Shown here: positions 2,583-54,850 of the stretch, piece by piece
How the letters are laid out: the number at the start of each line of letters is the position of its first letter
Position numbering within the stretch: the stretch's first letter is position 1
Source: Dehalococcoidia bacterium
Lineage (GTDB): Bacteria > Chloroflexota > Dehalococcoidia > Lucifugimonadales > CAZENU01
Reading direction: 5' to 3'
NCBI GenBank assembly: GCA_965117035.1
Contig: OZ220748.1
Span: forward strand, 1,607,429-1,671,428
Length of the DNA stretch: 64,000 bases
Position numbers and translations under genes: made by a program
The notes under the pieces: generated by a model
Databases searched by the model: none
The model's input: the letters and a program-made list of their open reading frames with translations, nothing else
Told to the model about the DNA's origin: nothing

Positions 2583-4066
2583 ACGCGGCGAGCCTCGGCG
2601 GCGACGACCGCAGGCGCCGGCTGCTGATGGACCGCAGCGTCCCCGGCAGGCTGGGCACGACGCTGCCGCCGCTGGACGTGCCCGCCCAGGAGCTTCCACC
2701 GGCGGAGGTGCTGCGCGACTCGCTGGAGATGCCCGAGGTGTCCGAGGGCGAGCTGGTGCGCTACTTCTCGCAGATCAGCCAGTTCAACTTCTCGATCGAC
2801 CACAACTTCTACCCGCTTGGGAGCTGTACGATGAAGTACAACCCCAAGCTCAACGACGAGATGGCCGGCCTCCCGGGGATGTCGGAGATACACCCCCACC
2901 AGCCCGACTCGACGGTGCAGGGCGCGTTGAGGCTCGTGCACGAGCTGCAGGGCTACCTGACCGAGATATCGGGCATGGCCGCGACGAGCCTGGCGCCCAA
3001 GGCGGGCGCCGAGAGCGAGCTCGCGGGGATGCTCATGGCGCGGGCGTACCATCTCGCCAACGGCGAGGGCGACCGGCGGGACGTGCTCGTCCCCGACAGC
3101 GCGCACGGCACCAACCCGGCGTCGGCGGCGATGGCCGGCTTCAGGCTGGTCGAGCTGCCCTCCGACGCGTCCGGCAACACCGACCTCGAGGCGCTGGAGG
3201 CCGCCGCCGGAGACGGCCTGGCCGCCTTCATGCTCACGCAGCCGAGCACGTTGGGACTGTTCGACACGAACATCCTGGAGGTCACGCGCATCGTCCGCGC
3301 GGCGGGCGGCGTCGTCTACGGCGATGGGGCGAACCTGAACGCGCTGCTGGGCCGGGTCAAGCTGGGCGAGCTCGGCTTCGACGTGGTCCACTCGAACCTG
3401 CACAAGACCTTCACGCAGCCGCACGGCGGCGGCGGGCCGGGAGCGGGCGCCGTCATGGTCAGCGAGCGGCTCGTGCCGTTCCTCCCGACGCCCGTCGTGG
3501 ACCGGCTGGAGGAGGACGGCGCGACGCGTTACGCTCTCGGGTCTCCGCCGCGGTCGATCGGCCGCATGGGCGCGTTCCACGGCAACTTCGGCGCGCTCGT
3601 GCGCGCGTACGCGTACATCCGGACGCTCGGCGACGAGGGGATAGCCCGCATCAGCGAGGACGCGGTCGTCAACGCCAACTATGTGCTGAGCCAGCTCCGG
3701 GACGACTACGATCTGCCGTACGACCGCACCTGCTTCCACGAAGTGGTGCTCTCCGCAAGCAACCTGAAGCAGGACCACGACGTCAGCGCGCTGGACGTGG
3801 CGAAGCGGCTGATCGATTACGGCATCCACCCGCCGACGATGTACTTTCCGCTGATCGTCGACGAGGCGCTGATGATCGAGCCGACCGAGACGGAGAGCCT
3901 GGAGACGCTCGACCACTTCATCGCTGTCATGAAGGCGATCGCCCGCGAGGCGGCCGAGGACCCCGACCTGGTGCGCTCCGCCCCGCACGACACGCCGAAC
4001 TCGCGCCTCGACGAGGCGGCCGCCGCGCGCCGGCCCAACCTGCGCTGGCGCCCGGCCTCGGATTAG
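2579..4066 (+). CDS. gcvPB: glycine dehydrogenase (decarboxylating) subunit 2
   Basis: GTG 2579 overlaps the gcvPA stop (GTGA); alternative ATG at 2627. PLP-lysine context SNLHKTF. The 1145 start in the ORF track is an out-of-gene extension. Confidence 0.88.
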   Translation: MNAASLGGDDRRRRLLMDRSVPGRLGTTLPPLDVPAQELPPAEVLRDSLEMPEVSEGELVRYFSQISQFNFSIDHNFYPLGSCTMKYNPKLNDEMAGLPGMSEIHPHQPDSTVQGALRLVHELQGYLTEISGMAATSLAPKAGAESELAGMLMARAYHLANGEGDRRDVLVPDSAHGTNPASAAMAGFRLVELPSDASGNTDLEALEAAAGDGLAAFMLTQPSTLGLFDTNILEVTRIVRAAGGVVYGDGANLNALLGRVKLGELGFDVVHSNLHKTFTQPHGGGGPGAGAVMVSERLVPFLPTPVVDRLEEDGATRYALGSPPRSIGRMGAFHGNFGALVRAYAYIRTLGDEGIARISEDAVVNANYVLSQLRDDYDLPYDRTCFHEVVLSASNLKQDHDVSALDVAKRLIDYGIHPPTMYFPLIVDEALMIEPTETESLETLDHFIAVMKAIAREAAEDPDLVRSAPHDTPNSRLDEAAAARRPNLRWRPASD

Positions 4067-4100
4067 AGCGCACACCCTCACACGGACAAGGAGGACAGAC

Positions 4101-4553
4101 ATGGTGGAAACAGGAGATCAGGCGCCGGACTTCACGCTGGTCGACCAGAACCGCGACGAGGTGACGCTCAGCCAGTTCCGAGGCGACAAGAGCGTCGTCC
4201 TCTCCTGGCACATACACTCGTTCACAGGCGGCTGAACGGACCAGGTATCCTCGTTCCGGGCCGCGAACCCGGACTTCGAGGAGAAGAATGCCCAGGTACT
4301 GGGCATCAGCACGAACGCGCAGCCGGCGCAGAACGCCTACTCGGTGTCGCTGGGGAACATCCCCTACCCGCTCCTGAGCGACTTCTACCCGCACGGCGAG
4401 GTCGCCAAGCAGTACGGCGTCTTCAACGAGGAGACCGGCGTCTCCTTCCGGGCGATCATCGTGGTGGGCAAGGACGGCGCCGTTCGCTTCAAGCGCGTAT
4501 ACACGAGCGCGGGCGACATCAGCATCGACGAGGTGCTGGCGGCCTGCGACTGA
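4101..4553 (+). CDS. peroxiredoxin/redoxin-like protein with in-frame UGA (codon 45, 4233-4235) at the T-x-x-C active site; candidate selenoprotein
   Basis: AAGGAGGA RBS before ATG 4101. Reads MVETGDQAPDFTLVD...HSFTGG-TGA-TDQVSSF and continues in the same frame as ORF 4344..4553 (VLGIST, YPLLSDFYPHG). Confidence 0.7.
4255..4273 (+). promoter_or_regulatory. candidate bacterial SECIS hairpin
   Basis: TCCGGG-CCGCGAA-CCCGGA, a 6-bp perfect stem starting 20 nt after UGA 4233-4235. Confidence 0.3.
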
Positions 4554-4614
4554 CGCCGACCGCCTCGCGGGTCAACCCTTTCGCAACTCTCGTCCGGGCC
4601 GAGGCGCGTCCGCT

Positions 4615-4823
4615 GATCCCGTCGTTCCCGTGAAGACGGGGACCCCTGCCCCCGCCGTGGGTTCCCGCCTGGGGAGACCTTTGCGTAACCCCTCGCGATG
4701 GAGCCCGACAGGGCGGACACCCGTGGATTTCATAGCTGAGCCCCCAACCCCCTGGGTTCCCGCCTGCGCGGGAATGACGGTTATGCAAGGGTCTCCCTGC
4801 GCGGGAACGACGAGAGTGGGTCG
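4615..4823. repeat. cluster of REP-like hairpin repeats (GGGTTCCCGC-N-GCGGGAATGACGGTTATGCAAG family)
   Basis: Unit 4754-4789, degenerate unit 4790-4823 and related hairpins at 4618-4680. Same family as 54688-54850 and 53465-53665. Confidence 0.6.
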
Positions 4824-4827
4824 TTGA

Positions 4828-4833
4828 TATAAT
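4828..4833 (+). promoter_or_regulatory. candidate -10 box (TATAAT) within the conserved 15-mer GATATAATGGCGCCC
   Basis: Lies 30 nt upstream of ATG 4863; an identical 15-mer is at 21056-21070. The -35 is weak. Confidence 0.3.
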
Positions 4834-4862
4834 GGCGCCCTCTTGTCCAGGAGGTGCGGCCC

Positions 4863-5378
4863 ATGATTGGAGTCGGCAGCGAGGCCCCGGACTTCACCCT
4901 CGTCGACCACAACAAGCGCGACGTGACGCTGAGCGGCTACCGGGGCCGCAAGAACGTCGTCCTGTCGTTTCATATCTACACCTTCACGGACGGCTGACGG
5001 GACCAGATTCTCTCGTTCATGGCGATGGGGCGCCAGTTCGAGAAGAGGGATACCCAGGTACTGGGTATTAGCACCGACGCCAGGCCGACCCAGGCCGCCT
5101 ACTATCTTTGCATGGGCCCCACGCTCTACTACCCGATCCCGCTGCTGAGCGATTTCCACCCCAAGGGGGCGGTGAGCAGGCTCTACGGCGTCTACGACGA
5201 CGAGATGGGCACGGCGAAGCGCGCCGTCGTCATGATCGACAAGGACGGTGTCGTGCGATCGGCGCGTCTCTACACCAGCGTGATCAAGGCCACCACGACA
5301 GGCCAGGCCTACGTCGAGTCGGACCTCGACGCGGCGAACGTGCTCGACGAGCTCGACGAGCTGCTGGGGGCCGGATAG
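4863..5378 (+). CDS. peroxiredoxin/redoxin-like protein, paralog 2, with in-frame UGA (codon 45, 4995-4997); candidate selenoprotein
   Basis: AGGAGG RBS. Reads MIGVGSEAPDFTLVD...YTFTDG-TGA-RDQILSF and continues in the frame of ORF 5019..5378 (VLGISTD, IPLLSDFHPKG). Confidence 0.7.
5020..5035 (+). promoter_or_regulatory. candidate bacterial SECIS hairpin
   Basis: TGGCG-ATGGGG-CGCCA, starting 23 nt after UGA 4995-4997. Confidence 0.25.
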
Positions 5379-5393
5379 CGCCGGAGACACGGA

Positions 5394-6230
5394 ATGACCG
5401 AGCGAGTCCCCAGGTACGTATTCGAGGAAGGCGACTACGCCCTGGTCGTCGACCGGCGCGGCCGGCGCTACTTCATGCGCCTGGAGGCGGACGGGAGGTT
5501 CAACTCGCATCTCGGCCATTTCCGCCACGACGTGCTGTTCGGGCAGAACGAGGGCGCGCGGGTCGAGACGTCGAAGGGCCACTGGCTGCTGGCGGTCAAG
5601 CCGACGATGGCCGACTTCACGCGCGAGATGCCGCGCATCGCCACCATCGTCTACCCGAAGGACCTGGGCGCGGTGATCGTCTACGGCGACCTGTTCCCCG
5701 GCGCGCGGGTGCTGGAGGCGGGCAGCGGCTCGGGAGCGCTCACGATGGCGATAGCGCGCGCCGTCGGACGCGACGGCATGGTCGTCTCGTACGACGTGCG
5801 CGACGACATGACGGAGCGGGCGCGGGAGAACGTCGACGCGATGCTCGACGACCACTCCTGGGTCACCTTCAAGAAGGGGGACGTGTACGAGGGCTTCGAG
5901 GAGACGGAGCTCGACCGCGTCGTGCTCGACCTGCCGGAGCCGTGGCACGTCGTGCCGCACGCGCTGCGGGCGCTGGTGCCGGGCGGCATCTTCCTGGCAT
6001 TCGTGCCGACGGTCGTGCAGTTCACCGAGGTGACGCGCGCGCTGAAGGCCGAGCGGTCGTTCGAGCTGATCGAGACGGTCGAGGTGCTGATGCGCCCGTG
6101 GGAGGTCGCGGGACGCAGCGTCAGGCCGTCGCACCGGATGGTCGGCCACACCGGCTTCATCACCACCGCCCGCAAGTGCGACCCGCGGCAGACATCGGAC
6201 GACGACAGCGACGACACCACACAGGAGTGA
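5394..6230 (+). CDS. trmI: tRNA (adenine-N1)-methyltransferase, TrmI/Gcd14 family
   Basis: 278 aa. N-terminal beta domain plus SAM motif VLEAGSGSGALT and TrmI-like layout. Confidence 0.8.
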   Translation: MTERVPRYVFEEGDYALVVDRRGRRYFMRLEADGRFNSHLGHFRHDVLFGQNEGARVETSKGHWLLAVKPTMADFTREMPRIATIVYPKDLGAVIVYGDLFPGARVLEAGSGSGALTMAIARAVGRDGMVVSYDVRDDMTERARENVDAMLDDHSWVTFKKGDVYEGFEETELDRVVLDLPEPWHVVPHALRALVPGGIFLAFVPTVVQFTEVTRALKAERSFELIETVEVLMRPWEVAGRSVRPSHRMVGHTGFITTARKCDPRQTSDDDSDDTTQE

Positions 6231-10077: not shown

Positions 10078-11289
10078 CTATTCGAACTGCCGACGAACTT
10101 GGCCTGAGCCTACGAACTGGGACAGCAGCCGGTAGTTGCCGGACTCGTAGCGCACTCTGCCGGCGACGACCGCCGGGTGGATCCCCAGGTCGAATGCGAG
10201 CGCCATGACGGCCATGCCCGACGGGTCCGACGCGGCCTCGCTCGCGTCCCAGGCCGCCTTGGGGATGAGCGCCTCCTCCGCTAGTGCGTCCGCCTCGGAC
10301 TCCTTGGAGCCACCGTTGGGCTCCTCTCTGCTCCGCAGAGTGTGATCGTGGACGAATGAGGCGTCTTCGCCGTTGTCGAGGTGCAGCCCGATATGGGCCA
10401 GCTCGTGTAGCAGGCAGTACCAGAAGTTGTCGATCCGGTCGTACCGGAGGGTCAGGCCGATCACGGGCGGGCCGTTGCTCTCGCGAAGCGCGGCGCCGTC
10501 CAGATGCGTTCTCGGCAGATGGCGCACAATCTGCACCGGTATGCCGAGATCGGCGAGGAGACCGACTGCCTGCCTTGGCCCGTCTTCGAAGCGGCTGAGC
10601 TGCGCGATGTTCCGGAGCAGCCCGGGGGTGACCGTTCCCGACCGGTACGAGGCAGGCGGCGGGTGCGCGTTGGCCCTGGCCAGCACCTGCCAGCACCATG
10701 CGCCCAAGGCATACTCGTCCGTCTTGGCGTTGACGCGTCGATGGTCGTTCCTGCGAAACGTCGACGCGGGCGCAACGCTGTGACCGCCGGCGCGGCGCAT
10801 AAGGTCGCGCATAATCTCCTCGGCTCGGTCCTTCAGATCCGGGGCGTCCGGAATCCATCCAAGCTTGGCCATCGCCCGAACGGGAAAGCGCGTCCATTCG
10901 ACGCCGGCCAGCGTGTCGTCCAGGATCACCTCTGGCTCCCTGAGCAGCGCTTCAGCCGGAATCCCGAGGTGCCGATGAAGCGCGCGGGCCATCGACATGG
11001 TGATAGGCCGCTTACCGGAGAGCACCTCCGACACCTTGGCGTAGCTACCGATGTGTGGTACCAAATCCCGCCGCTTCAGGCCCGCCTGGTCCATGCGGAA
11101 CTCGATTGCCGCTACGGGGTCGGGAGGGGCAATCGGATGGTACCGGTCCTCGTAGTGCTCGACGAGGTCGGCAAGAATATCCCGCTCGTCACCCTCCGGC
11201 GTACCGTCCTCGGCGTGGAATATCTCCCCGAGCCTATCCAACGCCGCCTCGTAGTCGCCCTCGCTGCGGATCGGACTGATCGTCACCAT
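10078..11289 (-). CDS. HigA-like HTH antitoxin domain fused to ImmA/IrrE metallopeptidase domain
   Basis: 403 aa. N-terminal XRE/HigA-type HTH (KVSEVLSGKRPITMSMARALHRHLGI); C-terminal HEXXH (LLHELAHIGLH). Confidence 0.75.
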   Translation of the reverse strand: MVTISPIRSEGDYEAALDRLGEIFHAEDGTPEGDERDILADLVEHYEDRYHPIAPPDPVAAIEFRMDQAGLKRRDLVPHIGSYAKVSEVLSGKRPITMSMARALHRHLGIPAEALLREPEVILDDTLAGVEWTRFPVRAMAKLGWIPDAPDLKDRAEEIMRDLMRRAGGHSVAPASTFRRNDHRRVNAKTDEYALGAWCWQVLARANAHPPPASYRSGTVTPGLLRNIAQLSRFEDGPRQAVGLLADLGIPVQIVRHLPRTHLDGAALRESNGPPVIGLTLRYDRIDNFWYCLLHELAHIGLHLDNGEDASFVHDHTLRSREEPNGGSKESEADALAEEALIPKAAWDASEAASDPSGMAVMALAFDLGIHPAVVAGRVRYESGNYRLLSQFVGSGQVRRQFE

Positions 11290-11292
11290 TGT

Positions 11293-11613
11293 CTACACCT
11301 CCTCGGCATCGACCCTGTCGTACTCCGCGTGCGTGCCGATAAAGCGTATGTAAACGCGCCGGCCCGCGTAGTTCACGTCGACCACCAACCGGTAGGCACT
11401 ACCCTTGATCCTGAATACGACGCGATTGTTGGGCAGGATGCTGGCGCGGGAAAATCGATGCCGTACCTGGTCCGGCGACGCCCAGTCGGCCCGCCGGGTT
11501 TCGAGAAACCAGGCCCGCAACGGCTGCTCGGAATCAGGATGGCGCTCCCAGAACTCTCGAAGGGTCTTTCTGGAGAAGATCCGCAAGGTCCCACATGCCA
11601 ATCCAATCTTCAC
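11293..11613 (-). CDS. higB: HigB-family type II toxin
   Basis: RIFSRKTLREFWERHPDSEQPLRAWF...RFIGTHAEYD matches the HigB_toxin family. Likely true start is TTG at 11586. Confidence 0.75.
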   Translation of the reverse strand: MKIGLACGTLRIFSRKTLREFWERHPDSEQPLRAWFLETRRADWASPDQVRHRFSRASILPNNRVVFRIKGSAYRLVVDVNYAGRRVYIRFIGTHAEYDRVDAEEV

Positions 11614-20353: not shown

Positions 20354-20905
20354 TCAGCGGGCCTCGACCAGGTCGCGGATGGCCTCCAGCGTCGCGGGCC
20401 CGATGCCGGTGACGTCGAGCAGGTCCTCGGGGGTCGCGAACGGGCCGTTGGCCTCGCGGTGGGCGACGATGGCGGCCGCCCTCACGCTGCCGATCTGGGG
20501 CAGGGAGACCAGCACGTCGACTCCGGCAGAGTTTATGTCGATCCTGCCCGTGCCGGCCTTCCCGGCCGGCTGGGCGGATGAGGGCGTCTCGCCGCGGGCC
20601 GGAATGTGCCAGTGGGCCTCGTCGACCAGCCGGGCCGCGAGGTTCACGGCGTCGAGGTCGGCCTCGTCCGTGACGCCGCCCGCCGCCTGGACCGCGGCGG
20701 CCAGGCGCGCGTTCCCGCCGATCGCGTAGACCCCCGGCGCGCGCACCGCTCCCGTGACGTAGACCTGGATTTCGCCGGGCGCCGGGGTGGGAAGCAGGAC
20801 CTCGATGCCGTCGGAGGGCGTCGAGGCGTTGAGCAGCAGGTAGAGGACGCCCGCGGCGGCCGCCACGACCGCCAATACCAACACGGCCTGTGACGCCAGC
20901 TTCAT
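20354..20905 (-). CDS. comEA: ComEA-family DNA-binding protein (helix-hairpin-helix)
   Basis: Start MKLASQAVLVLAVV (TM anchor). C-terminal INSAGVDVLVSLPQIG...LLDVTGIGPATLEAI HhH pair. Confidence 0.8.
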   Translation of the reverse strand: MKLASQAVLVLAVVAAAAGVLYLLLNASTPSDGIEVLLPTPAPGEIQVYVTGAVRAPGVYAIGGNARLAAAVQAAGGVTDEADLDAVNLAARLVDEAHWHIPARGETPSSAQPAGKAGTGRIDINSAGVDVLVSLPQIGSVRAAAIVAHREANGPFATPEDLLDVTGIGPATLEAIRDLVEAR

Positions 20906-21035
20906 GGGGCAGACACGCGCTTGGCTGAAATTGGCGGCAAAATCACGTCCGACGGTCTCGTATGTGGCCGCCCGCACACGCCACTGGCGACCGCATGAAC
21001 AATCATACACCAGGGTGGCGCCGATGGCAGAGGCG

Positions 21036-21063
21036 TTGTATCCCGCCCGGCAGACGATATAAT
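21036..21063 (+). promoter_or_regulatory. candidate sigma70-type promoter TTGTAT-N16-TATAAT
   Basis: The -10 lies inside the 15-mer GATATAATGGCGCCC, which is also found at 4826-4840. About 53 nt upstream of ATG 21116. Confidence 0.35.
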
Positions 21064-21115
21064 GGCGCCCGTCAGGGTCAGCGAACCCCAAGGCCGAATC
21101 TGGAGGCAGTCAGCG

Positions 21116-21430
21116 ATGGGCGAGTTCGTCAGAGTTGCGTCGGTTAACGATCTGGAAGACGATGGGACGATGCAGGTGGACGTAGGAGACGAGCCGGTCC
21201 TGCTTGCCAGGCTCGACGGCGAGTTCTACGCCATCGGAGAGGAGTGCTCCCACGACGGCGGGCCGCTCTCCCAGGGCTGGGTCGAAGACGGGCAGGTGGA
21301 GTGCCCGCTGCACGGCGCCCAGTTCGACCTCAAGTCGGGCGACTTCACGGCGCCCCCGGCGGCCGAGCCGGTCAAGGCGTACCCGGTGCGCATCGAGGGC
21401 GACGACGTCCTGGTAGGGACAGCCGAGTAG
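21116..21430 (+). CDS. Rieske [2Fe-2S] ferredoxin
   Basis: CSHDGGPL ... CPLHGAQF cluster ligands; 104 aa. Confidence 0.8.
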   Translation: MGEFVRVASVNDLEDDGTMQVDVGDEPVLLARLDGEFYAIGEECSHDGGPLSQGWVEDGQVECPLHGAQFDLKSGDFTAPPAAEPVKAYPVRIEGDDVLVGTAE

Positions 21431-21457
21431 CGCCCCGCGAGCGGCCGGGCCTGTGCG

Positions 21458-22165
21458 TCAGCGCCCGCGCTCGTCTCCCCAGAGGGCTATGTGCAGACGC
21501 GTCGTGAAGCGGTAGCCGCGCCGAACGCACTGCTCGGCTACCCAGTCGCCGCGCTCGTGGATCGCGTCCGGCGTCGTGCCCTCGGGCATCAGCAGCACGC
21601 GGTCTCGCGGCAGGCCGTGCCGCTCGACCACGCCGGCCACCTCGTCGACGTCGCCGGGCTCGGTCACGACGAACTTGAAGTAGGACACGGGGAGCCGCGC
21701 GAAAGCCCGCAGCGCGTCTGAGTCCTCGCGGCGGTCGGCACCGTTACCTGAGTTGGCCGTCTTCGGCGAGACGTTCCACTGCGAGACGGCGGCCGCCATC
21801 TCGGCGTTCGGGGCGACCGTGCCGTTAGTCTCGACCTCGATGGTCCAGCCCCCGTCGCTCAGCGACAGCGCCAGCGGCCCCAGCTCAGACTGCTGCAGCA
21901 TCGGCTCGCCGCCGGTGACGACCAGGTTCCTGCACGGCAGCGATTCGAGCCGCAGGCGAATGTCGGACGCGTCCAGCGACACGATCTGCTCCCGGGGATC
22001 GTACCGCTCCCAGTCCCAGGTGTACTTCGTGTCGCACCAGGAGCAGGCCAGGTTGCAGGTCGCCAGCCGCAGGAAGACCGACGGGCGGCCCGCCGAGGCT
22101 CCCTCCCCCTGGATGGAGTGGAATATCTCCGGCTCGCCCGAAGGCATCCGGCTGACCTTCAGCAT
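21458..22165 (-). CDS. queE: 7-carboxy-7-deazaguanine synthase (radical SAM)
   Basis: IQGEGASAGRPSVFLRLATCNLACSWCDTKYTW. Confidence 0.85.
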   Translation of the reverse strand: MLKVSRMPSGEPEIFHSIQGEGASAGRPSVFLRLATCNLACSWCDTKYTWDWERYDPREQIVSLDASDIRLRLESLPCRNLVVTGGEPMLQQSELGPLALSLSDGGWTIEVETNGTVAPNAEMAAAVSQWNVSPKTANSGNGADRREDSDALRAFARLPVSYFKFVVTEPGDVDEVAGVVERHGLPRDRVLLMPEGTTPDAIHERGDWVAEQCVRRGYRFTTRLHIALWGDERGR

Positions 22166-22896
22166 CGGCCGACCAGCGCCGGGTCCTCTACGCCAGCCTC
22201 GCTGAAGCCCCTGGCGCGCAGGACGCAGCTATCGCACGCGCCGCACGGCCGCTCGCCGCCGGCATAGCAGCTCCAGGTGAGCTCCAGCGGCGCGCCCAGG
22301 TCGACCGCCATGCGGACGATCTCCGCCTTGGACAGCTCTATGATCGGCGTCTCGATGCGGATGTCGACACCGTACTCGGCGCCCAGCTTGCTGCCGTGGC
22401 GGAGCGTCTCCGACATCTGCGCGTAGAACTCCGGGCGGCAGTCCGGGTAGCCGCTGTAGTCGAGCACGTTCGGCGCCATGTAGACGGCCGCGGATACGTC
22501 GCCGGCGGCGACGCGCTCGACCTCGATGGCGTGGAGCACCTGGCTCTCCAGGTATGCGGCGGCCAGCGCCACGAACGTCGTGTTGCGCAGCGGCACGTAG
22601 GTGATGGGGATGCTCGCGCCCATCCGCTTCGGCTCGCGGTCGGTCGGCAGCGGGAAGGCCTCCGGGTTGGTCAGCGCCGAATACCAGGCGACGTCGCCGA
22701 GGAACGAGATGTCCACCAGGCGGTGATCGATCTCCAGGCGTTGGGCGACCTCTAACGCGCTGGTCACCTCGCGGCTGTGCGTCTGCCCGTACTGGAACGT
22801 GATGGCGGTCAGCCGGTCCGAACGTGACTTCGCGTACGCCGTCACGGTCGTGGAGTCGAGCCCTCCGGACAGCAGGGTGACGGCGAAGCTGGTCAT
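22159..22896 (-). CDS. queC: 7-cyano-7-deazaguanine synthase
   Basis: LLSGGLDSTT PP-loop and C-terminal Zn Cys cluster (CGACDSC). Confidence 0.9.
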   Translation of the reverse strand: MTSFAVTLLSGGLDSTTVTAYAKSRSDRLTAITFQYGQTHSREVTSALEVAQRLEIDHRLVDISFLGDVAWYSALTNPEAFPLPTDREPKRMGASIPITYVPLRNTTFVALAAAYLESQVLHAIEVERVAAGDVSAAVYMAPNVLDYSGYPDCRPEFYAQMSETLRHGSKLGAEYGVDIRIETPIIELSKAEIVRMAVDLGAPLELTWSCYAGGERPCGACDSCVLRARGFSEAGVEDPALVGRC

Positions 22897-22926
22897 CGGG
22901 GCCGGCGCGGCGCTCTCACGTCGCCG

Positions 22927-23352
22927 TCATGCGTCCCGCTCGTAGCGGGCGGTGACGCGTGCGTGAAGGCCGCCGCGGACGTTGTAGTCGAGGTCGACCG
23001 ACATGCGGGCCGGCTGGCAGACGGCGACCAGATCTTCGAGAATCCGGTTGGCGGCGTGCTCGTGGACGATCCCGACGCCCATGTACGACAGCAGGTAGTA
23101 CTTGAGGCTCTTGAGCTCGATGCACTGGCCGTCCGGCACGTAGCTGATCGTCAGCTTGCCGAAGTCTGGCAGTCCGGTCCACGGGCAGACCGCCGTGAAC
23201 TCCTCGGTGTCGATGACGACCTCGGCCCGGCTGCCCTGGTAGTCGTAGTCGAAGGCGAGCAGGCACGCCGCGTCGACCGCGCTCTCGGGCCGCGTCTCGA
23301 ACCTGCGGTCGAGCTGCTCGTACCGCTCCTGCAACGCCTGTATGCTCGACAT
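22927..23352 (-). CDS. queF: NADPH-dependent 7-cyano-7-deazaguanine reductase (type I)
   Basis: Start MSSIQ at 23352. Catalytic Cys context AVCPWTGLPDF and QueF motif ELKSLKYYLLSY. Confidence 0.85.
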   Translation of the reverse strand: MSSIQALQERYEQLDRRFETRPESAVDAACLLAFDYDYQGSRAEVVIDTEEFTAVCPWTGLPDFGKLTISYVPDGQCIELKSLKYYLLSYMGVGIVHEHAANRILEDLVAVCQPARMSVDLDYNVRGGLHARVTARYERDA

Positions 23353-23580
23353 CGGGTCGCCTCCGGCAACCATGACTACCGACCTATAATACAATCGCGC
23401 CATGAGCAAGACCAGTTCGACAGGGCTCTCGCCAGGGCCATTCCAAAGCCGCCACAGATTGGCGGCGCCAGACGTGCACCGGGTTCAACGCCCCCTCACC
23501 CCGACCCTATCCCGCGTGGTGGAGAGGGAACAATGGAAGGGACCGGGGCTCTCACCTTCGGCCACGGGGCTCGCGCCGGC

Positions 23581-40263: not shown

Positions 40264-41945
<1,682 letters not shown>

Positions 41946-53464: not shown

Positions 53465-53665
53465 GAGTCACGTTCCCCTCGGTAACTCGGAACCCTCGCG
53501 ATGAACGCGGATTCCCCACCTCCTGCGGCAGGCCGGCTTGGCGGACTGCTTCCGGAGTCGTGGTGGCGCGCCATATCGGCGATGGATTCCCGCCCCCGTC
53601 TTCACGAGGGCAGGCTCTTCGCGGGAACGACGGTCCTGGGGGAGTGAAAGTCCGGTTTGCAACAC
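53465..53665. repeat. degenerate REP-like hairpin cluster (same family as 4615-4823, partly inverted)
   Basis: aaccctcgcgatgaacgcggattcc, ccccgtcttcacgaggg (reverse complement of the 4628-4645 motif) and ctcttcgcgggaacgacgg. Confidence 0.45.
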
Positions 53666-54687: not shown

Positions 54688-54850
54688 GGGTTCCCGCCTT
54701 CGCGGGAATGACGATAATGCAAGGGGTTCCCGCAGCGGGAATGACGGCTATGCGAGGGTTTCCATTGCGGCAATGACGGTTGCGCAAGGGGCTCCGGTCT
54801 CGGGAATGGCCGGTTACGCAAGGGCCTCGGCTCCGAAGAGAACGACTGTG
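54688..54850. repeat. tandem array of about-34-bp hairpin units (4 full plus 1 degenerate)
   Basis: Units 54688-54723, 54724-54756, 54757-54788 and 54789-54822, each GGGTTCCCGC-N-GCGGGAATGACGGNTATGCAAG-like. Confidence 0.7.

Follow-up and report, generated by a model that had tools for sequence, protein, structure and literature searches.

Two adjacent AhpE-like peroxiredoxin genes with an in-frame UGA at the peroxidatic codon, probable selenoprotein genes of a Dehalococcoidia bacterium

The DNA considered here, which we call the window, is a stretch of 64,000 nucleotides (nt) with a G+C content of 68% from a Dehalococcoidia bacterium (contig OZ220748.1, positions 1,607,429 to 1,671,428 of the forward strand), and it carries two neighbouring peroxiredoxin genes, prx1 and prx2, each of which has a single UGA in frame at codon 45. 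Judging from comparisons with related genes, we think it very probable that both are translated through this UGA as selenoproteins, and that their products are complete 1-Cys-type (AhpE-like) peroxiredoxins with selenocysteine (Sec) in place of the peroxidatic cysteine. The elements on which this proposal is built are as follows.

4088..4094, + strand: ribosome-binding site of prx1, AAGGAGG, 6 nt 5' of the ATG, read directly from the sequence
4101..4553, + strand: prx1, AhpE-like peroxiredoxin, 150 codons with a single UGA predicted to be read through; own stop TGA at 4551-4553
4233..4235, + strand: UGA, codon 45 of prx1, putative Sec at the peroxidatic position (T42-x-x-U45), context SFTGG-U-TDQ
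4849..4854, + strand: ribosome-binding site of prx2, AGGAGG, 8 nt 5' of the ATG, read directly from the sequence
4863..5378, + strand: prx2, paralogous AhpE-like peroxiredoxin with a longer C-terminal tail, 171 codons with a single UGA predicted to be read through; stop TAG at 5376-5378
4995..4997, + strand: UGA, codon 45 of prx2, putative Sec at the peroxidatic position, context TFTDG-U-RDQ, same alignment column as in prx1

The peroxidatic codon and its relatives

Translation from ATG 4101 and ATG 4863 meets one TGA in each frame and no other interruption, which confirms the sequence-only reading that preceded this work, where both frames had been opened behind good ribosome-binding sites and a TGA placed at codon 45 of each. 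That reading had also taken the flanks of the two TGA codons to be mutually homologous, and they are: across 139 residues the products show 53% identity, and both match the Pfam family AhpC-TSA (PF00578) on either side of the UGA, prx1 at 108.5 bits (E 2.8e-31, residues 5-130) and prx2 at 98.3 bits (E 4.1e-28, residues 4-133) against a cut-off of 26. Among solved structures, the nearest is AhpE of M. tuberculosis (MtAhpE; Rv2238c; PDB 1xxu, 1xvw, 4x0x and 5c04), with an E-value of 4e-30 as compared with 6e-17 for the next class of peroxiredoxins; indeed, each of the seven top PDB sequences is either MtAhpE or a near homologue of AhpE (E 4e-30 to 5e-28), the first of them being the F37H mutant of MtAhpE, and prx1 has His37. 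The alignment with MtAhpE runs without a gap across the N-terminal 85 residues and sets U45 opposite Cys45, the sole peroxidatic cysteine of that 1-Cys peroxiredoxin, so that the TGA does sit, as had been proposed, at a T-x-x-C peroxiredoxin active site. The motif takes the form T42-G-G-U45 in prx1 and T42-D-G-U45 in prx2; Thr42 is kept, and R117 of the window proteins falls opposite the catalytic Arg116 of MtAhpE.

Homologues that carry a name are annotated as 'alkyl hydroperoxide reductase E' or 'mycoredoxin-dependent peroxiredoxin', and no resolving cysteine is conserved, since the related loci L001-L012 keep neither Cys149 of prx1 nor Cys82 of prx2. No NCBIfam model reaches its cut-off for either protein, the top one being PrxU (NF040737) at 60.1 and 59.7 bits against a cut-off of 270. 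On these comparisons the description that fits the two predicted proteins best is that of AhpE-like 1-Sec peroxiredoxins belonging to a Dehalococcoidia clade. From the canonical tetrad Pro-Thr-Cys-Arg (PxxxTxxC) the proline is missing, codon 38 being Ile in both genes (4212-4214 and 4974-4976) at the place of Pro38 in MtAhpE. This position is Ile, Val or Ala in the orthologues L001-L012 and L024, as well as in the Cys form P0003, and Pro in L013, L014 and the Bacillus-type and Anaerolineae-type Sec forms; prx1 and prx2 are thus divergent members of the family, in which three residues of the tetrad are kept and one is lost.

The distribution of codons at the active site is one of the arguments for Sec. 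A scan of one genome per species gave 80 related loci, the 14 best of which are all Dehalococcoidia or other Chloroflexota metagenome-assembled genomes (MAGs), and the active-site column holds TGA in 52 of these loci, TGC or TGT in 28 and no other codon in any; the alignment to Cys homologues, suggested earlier as a check, thus came out in favour of Sec. TGA is found in 15 of 15 Dehalococcoidia-type loci and in a further 37 loci in other phyla, from independent assemblies. Other TGA carriers are Anaerolineae, Desulfosporosinus, Binatia, Acidiferrales and many Neobacillus, Mesobacillus and other Bacillus-type genomes, while the Cys carriers include Acidobacteriota, Zixibacteria, and Mycobacterium with other actinomycetes. 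The Cys form P0003 (NCBI), 65% identical to prx1, has the same context, HIFSFTGGC. As an observation in its own right, TGA occupies the same column (DWTPV-U-GAQ) in cultured isolates of Neobacillus, Mesobacillus, Litchfieldia and other Bacillus-type genera (L039, L047-L049, L051, L053-L056, L060, L064-L066, L074 and L077), and aerobic Bacillaceae are unusual as selenoprotein users.

Purifying selection has acted on both sides of the UGA. Orthologues of prx1 (L001-L011, 53-91% identity) have TGA in every case, and so do all six orthologues of prx2, which lie beside prx1 in L001-L004 (79-92% identity) and stand single in L012 and L024. When the window genes are compared with their orthologues, the ratio of nonsynonymous to synonymous substitution rates (dN/dS) for prx1 is 0.12-0.31 in codons 1-44 and 0.10-0.24 in the C-terminal part, and for prx2 it is 0.09-0.24 and 0.10-0.20, respectively, codon 45 being TGA always.

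Stem-loops and the decoding of UGA-45

A hairpin a short way downstream of each UGA had been read as the signal for Sec insertion, and what we find there are two longer structures that resemble a bacterial selenocysteine insertion sequence (SECIS; bSECIS for the bacterial type), both taken from minimum-free-energy (MFE) folds.

4246..4284, + strand: SECIS-like stem-loop of prx1; outer helix 4246/4248-4253 with 4277-4282/4284, inner helix 4255-4260 with 4268-4273, apical loop CCGCGAA at 4261-4267
5008..5046, + strand: SECIS-like stem-loop of prx2; outer helix from 5008, inner helix 5020-5024 with 5031-5035, apical loop AUGGGG at 5025-5030

The hairpins originally noted at 4255-4273 and 5020-5035 are present and turn out to be the inner helices of these longer stem-loops (4246/4248-4284 and 5008-5046), which start 10-12 nt, and whose apical loops start 25 nt, 3' of the UGA. 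An apical loop at 25 nt lies inside the range of bacterial SECIS elements. The significance of the stem-loops comes from conservation and covariation across relatives and not from single-sequence folds, which are unexceptional (z -1.3 and -1.4). For the comparative test, 74 nt around the UGA were aligned from 20 Dehalococcoidia genes of the prx1 and prx2 types, and a two-helix structure was taken from the individual folds; an RNAalifold consensus was also tried, proved to be a compromise structure, and was replaced by the helix of the individual folds, which was then tested against controls. Across the 20 sequences 86% of the cells are paired, a share that falls to 42-54% in controls with the 3' partners slid 1-3 columns, and 12 of the 14 pairs show compensatory changes on both sides. 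Of 500 column shuffles, none reached the observed values on four of five measures, and four did so for the count of further pair types. The Sec forms of Dehalococcoidia form 9-14 of the 14 pairs, or 11-14 if the distant SAR202 locus L024 is excepted. The stem-loop of prx2 stands at the same position as that of prx1 and shares the conserved outer helix, and its inner helix differs in sequence and still pairs; because this inner helix is one register off that of prx1, the count for helix 2 is conservative. The proposed Sec signal is therefore conserved at a fixed distance with covariation, and we regard it as a candidate bSECIS. Together with the Cys/Sec column and the dN/dS values, this covariation supports the proposal of the sequence-only reading that both genes encode selenoproteins.

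The mechanism that we envisage is a familiar one. A ribosome arriving at UGA-45 would encounter, 10-12 nt downstream, a stem-loop serving as the bacterial SECIS, which would recruit SelB-GTP with Sec-tRNA(Sec), so that Sec would be inserted and termination avoided; a UGA without such a hairpin, such as the stop of prx1 at 4551-4553, would terminate translation normally. In the folded protein the selenolate, predicted to lie at the N-terminus of helix alpha2 beside Thr42 and Arg117, would reduce H2O2 or organic hydroperoxides and would then be regenerated by an external thiol reductant. The parts of this scheme that we infer are decoding by SelB and tRNA-Sec in the window's own genome, activity as a peroxidase, and which reductant takes part.

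Several observations weigh against a selenoprotein interpretation, and they are best told together. First, the window contains no tRNA-Sec, selA, selB or selD (ARAGORN found no tRNAs; Rfam and scans for SelD and SelB signature motifs were also used), no Sec machinery lies in the 6-kilobase (kb) flanks of the related loci, and selD was not found, among the matches listed from DNA-pattern and protein-based scans, in the genomes that hold prx1 or prx2 orthologues. Second, the classical bSECIS model expects a G in the first two positions of the apical loop, and in the MFE folds the loops CCGCGAA and AUGGGG do have G, but not in those two positions. Third, the hairpin codes for conserved residues (SSF...FEE), and its conservation is partly protein-driven. 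Finally, an otherwise near-universal active-site proline is Ile38 in both proteins.

What can be said about Sec machinery therefore comes from the wider phylum. Loci of selD were gathered by the DNA patterns GxG-U-GCK and A[LM]NIVCFP and by a protein-based scan, the motif IVDDPYDF being universal, and they include at least 43 from Dehalococcoidia and other Chloroflexota; in the 39 that extend over the N-terminus, selD's own catalytic Cys/Sec codon is TGA without exception. With such a selD in more than 35 genomes, the Sec trait is common in the phylum, and it is presumably present in the window's genome. That Sec-type selD is common in the phylum agrees with BSepDB (PMC13326102), where Dehalococcoidia MAGs with 46-49 selenoprotein genes are among the ten richest bacteria. 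Among the matches listed, tRNA-Sec is found near selD in Actinomycetota, Gemmatimonadota and Myxococcota loci only, and near none of the Chloroflexota ones. The SelD proteins are of some interest in themselves: SelD is a selenoprotein in L105, L111, L127, L201, L206, L214, L217, L244 and, from L286 to L390, about 30 more loci; its N-terminus takes at least three forms (GAG-U-GCK, GAG-U-ACK/ASK and CAG-U-AGK) in Dehalococcoidia and other Chloroflexota; and public gene calls for SelD, of 313-316 residues, start past the UGA.

Could UGA-45 be decoded, only not as Sec? A tRNA-Sec-like tRNA charged with Cys, or near-cognate read-through (Trp, Cys or Arg), would give a Cys-type or an inactive peroxiredoxin. 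Bioinformatic work has proposed tRNA-Sec-like tRNAs with a Cys identity for some uncultured bacteria, the Sec machinery is not seen in the window, and four close homologues from metagenome catalogues (P0001, P0002, P0004 and P0005) have W at the site. The last point is most simply an artefact: in these full-length proteins the Trp most likely reflects UGA translated under genetic code table 4 on short contigs, which hides selenoproteins. None of the public protein homologues is encoded verbatim in L001-L014 or L024. Against non-Sec decoding, TGA terminates 21 of the 61 long reading frames of the window that are rich in G+C at third codon positions (GC3), including gcvPA, trmI, the que genes and prx1, some of the 61 being antisense shadow frames; it is thus an ordinary stop here, even in prx1, which means that there is no genome-wide reassignment and that decoding at codon 45 must be local and signal-dependent. 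A scan of the window for in-frame TGA with high GC3 gave no further selenoprotein genes, only prx2, gene junctions and shadow frames, prx1 lying just below the GC3 threshold. Moreover, simple read-through has no need of the covarying downstream hairpin that SelB-dependent decoding requires, a Trp at the catalytic site would abolish activity and yet the gene is under purifying selection, and relatives within the class have a Sec-type selD. We consider non-Sec decoding very improbable.

A narrower doubt concerns the stem-loop, which might be a by-product of conserved codons, with recoding achieved through another signal. The outer helix is indeed encoded by the conserved SSF...FEE residues, the folds of single sequences are not significant, and around 13% of bacterial selenoprotein genes have no canonical SECIS according to BSepDB (PMC13326102). 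Nevertheless, L010, L012 (IAEF...KFMAR) and L024 have other amino acids in the arms and keep the pairing at the same columns, which means that codon conservation does not fully account for the helix; 12 of the 14 pairs have changed on both sides, whereas pairing collapses in the slid controls; and the Cys homologues, although similar as proteins, form just 2-8 of the 14 pairs. It would surprise us greatly if the helix owed its existence to the protein sequence.

That the TGAs might be lesions or assembly errors, leaving pseudogenes or a 44-residue peptide with perhaps a separately initiated C-terminal fragment, is suggested by standard calling of open reading frames (ORFs), which returns fragments only (4344-4553 for prx1 and 5019-5378 for prx2), and by public gene calls of relatives that are likewise short (67-120 residues), but this idea is hardly credible, since independently assembled orthologues of 46-91% identity retain the TGA, across the Dehalococcoidia-type loci and other phyla alike, with dN/dS of 0.09-0.31 on both sides, the N-terminal 44 codons follow a strong ribosome-binding site and hold the conserved APDFTL motif, and a catalytic position common to two paralogues and dozens of species is unlike the position of random lesions.

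The tandem locus and its surroundings

With Sec insertion as the favoured explanation for UGA-45, we can ask how a pair of such genes came about. The order gcvPA-gcvPB-prx1-prx2-trmI-HD is kept in L001-L004, where the neighbouring genes are 74-94% identical and the presumed gcvPB, whose orthology comes from tblastn matches, is 87-94% identical. More distant Dehalococcoidia have a single Sec-type gene immediately 5' of trmI, which is prx1-like in L005-L011 and prx2-like in L012, and a tree built by neighbour joining places the prx1 clade as sister to the prx2 clade within an all-Sec Dehalococcoidia clade. All of this points to an old duplication that has been held in place and not to a recent one. 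The simplest history would be that an ancestral Sec-peroxiredoxin gene at the gcvPB-trmI locus, already carrying Sec, underwent an old tandem duplication, after which one copy was lost in some lineages and both were kept here. The earlier suggestion that it is unusual for a Sec gene to be duplicated in tandem was overstated, given that these are old paralogues (53% identity, sister clades) and that genomes with several copies were known in 2006 (PMC1794560).

The two genes are separated by a 309-nt spacer (4554-4862) which folds at z -3.75 relative to shuffles and whose length in L001-L004 ranges from 199 to 793 nt. Two features within it deserve a line each.

4661..4808, strand not assigned: long imperfect palindrome of the spacer, arms 4661-4690 and 4779-4808 (30 nt, 83% complementary), resembling REP (repetitive extragenic palindromic) or MITE (miniature inverted-repeat transposable element) sequences
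4825..4833, + strand: TGaTATAAT, which may be an extended -10 element and precedes the start of prx2 by 29 nt, read from the sequence

The palindrome accounts for the 309-nt spacer and is outside the selenoprotein mechanism; it looks like a member of a REP- or MITE-type intergenic repeat family. The spacer also holds the direct repeats CCTGCGCGGGAAYGACG and CC(G/C)TGGGTTCCCGCCTG, and the end motif of the palindrome occurs again at 53616-53632 and 54697-54713, some 49 kb away. From the possible -10 element, prx2 may have a promoter of its own; a consensus scan of 3900-5600, in which promoters are required to have a -35 hexamer, found neither promoters nor terminators.

Elsewhere in the window, several other loci can be read. 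The minus strand at 10078-11562 has a gene for a HigB-type toxin (PF09907, E 8e-28), followed immediately and in the same frame by an ORF of 403 residues; the latter reads like an antitoxin fused to a metallopeptidase-like domain (HELAH) and has no Pfam match at 1e-5. Also on the minus strand, 20354-23484 appears from translations alone to hold queuosine-precursor genes (a QueE-like radical SAM protein, a QueC-like protein and a QueF- or QueD-like ORF), all ending in TGA, along with a ComEA-like helix-hairpin-helix protein, likewise read from its translation and with a TGA stop. The sole Rfam match in the window is a PyrR binding site on the plus strand at 40264-40380 (RF00515, 57.7 bits against a gathering threshold of 54), at the start of the ORF 40264-40938.

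Significance and known systems

In practical terms, this pair matters for the annotation of such genes. Gene callers fragment them or read the UGA as Trp, and as a consequence the peroxide defence of the abundant uncultured Dehalococcoidia is under-annotated. For enzymologists, the pair would offer a naturally occurring Sec variant of a 1-Cys peroxiredoxin of the AhpE type, without the conserved proline, and with P0003 at hand as a natural Cys form for comparison, and for students of evolution it would offer a Sec gene duplicated in place, where UGA and SECIS persist in both copies and the inner helix has diverged. Our present understanding of Sec decoding is of course left unchanged by prx1 and prx2, and the novelty that had been claimed for them does not hold, since the selenoprotein family is an established one and the class was known before for its wealth of selenoproteins. 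A more adventurous idea is that the FTGG-U / FTDG-U clade forms a mechanistically distinct peroxiredoxin subfamily, in which Sec is coupled to loss of the proline (Ile or Val at 38) and the paralogues act together, perhaps joined in a heterodimer at the AhpE-type A interface, perhaps as a peroxidase alongside a copy specialised for another substrate or reductant. We hold this to be unlikely, both as regards the subfamily and as regards the partnership; the evidence reaches as far as the loss of the proline and the retention of both copies under selection, and not to functional coupling.

Among known systems, MtAhpE is the nearest with a solved structure, having the same length, a peroxidatic residue at 45, Thr42, an arginine at 116/117 and no conserved resolving cysteine, and the differences are Sec for Cys and Ile38 for Pro38. 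AhpE is reduced by mycoredoxin-1 and mycothiol. Mycothiol production is not known from Dehalococcoidia, and the predicted selenoenzymes must therefore use a reductant other than that of AhpE. PrxU of Eubacterium acidaminophilum (NF040737), also a peroxiredoxin, likewise has Sec as its peroxidatic residue; however, the 60 bits scored against a cut-off of 270 mean that prx1 and prx2 are not members of that equivalog, whose model has 233 positions and is of the 2-Cys / Prx1 type. The broadest comparison is with the peroxiredoxins that have a T/SxxU site, in 2006 the fifth most common family of bacterial selenoproteins (Zhang et al. 2006, PMC1794560), in which the inferred conversions were all from Cys to Sec and in which Anaeromyxobacter dehalogenans has three copies per genome and Alkaliphilus metalliredigens two. 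With that family the window pair shares the AhpC/TSA fold, Sec at the position of the peroxidatic cysteine, Cys homologues elsewhere and a SECIS-type hairpin just downstream (PMC1794560), and it differs in belonging to an AhpE-like, Dehalococcoidia-specific clade with FTGG-U or FTDG-U, in having Ile for Pro, and in consisting of adjacent paralogues at a conserved locus. Therefore, prx1 and prx2 are new members of the known Sec-peroxiredoxin family, made slightly unusual by their AhpE-type scaffold, their missing proline and the retention of two adjacent paralogues.

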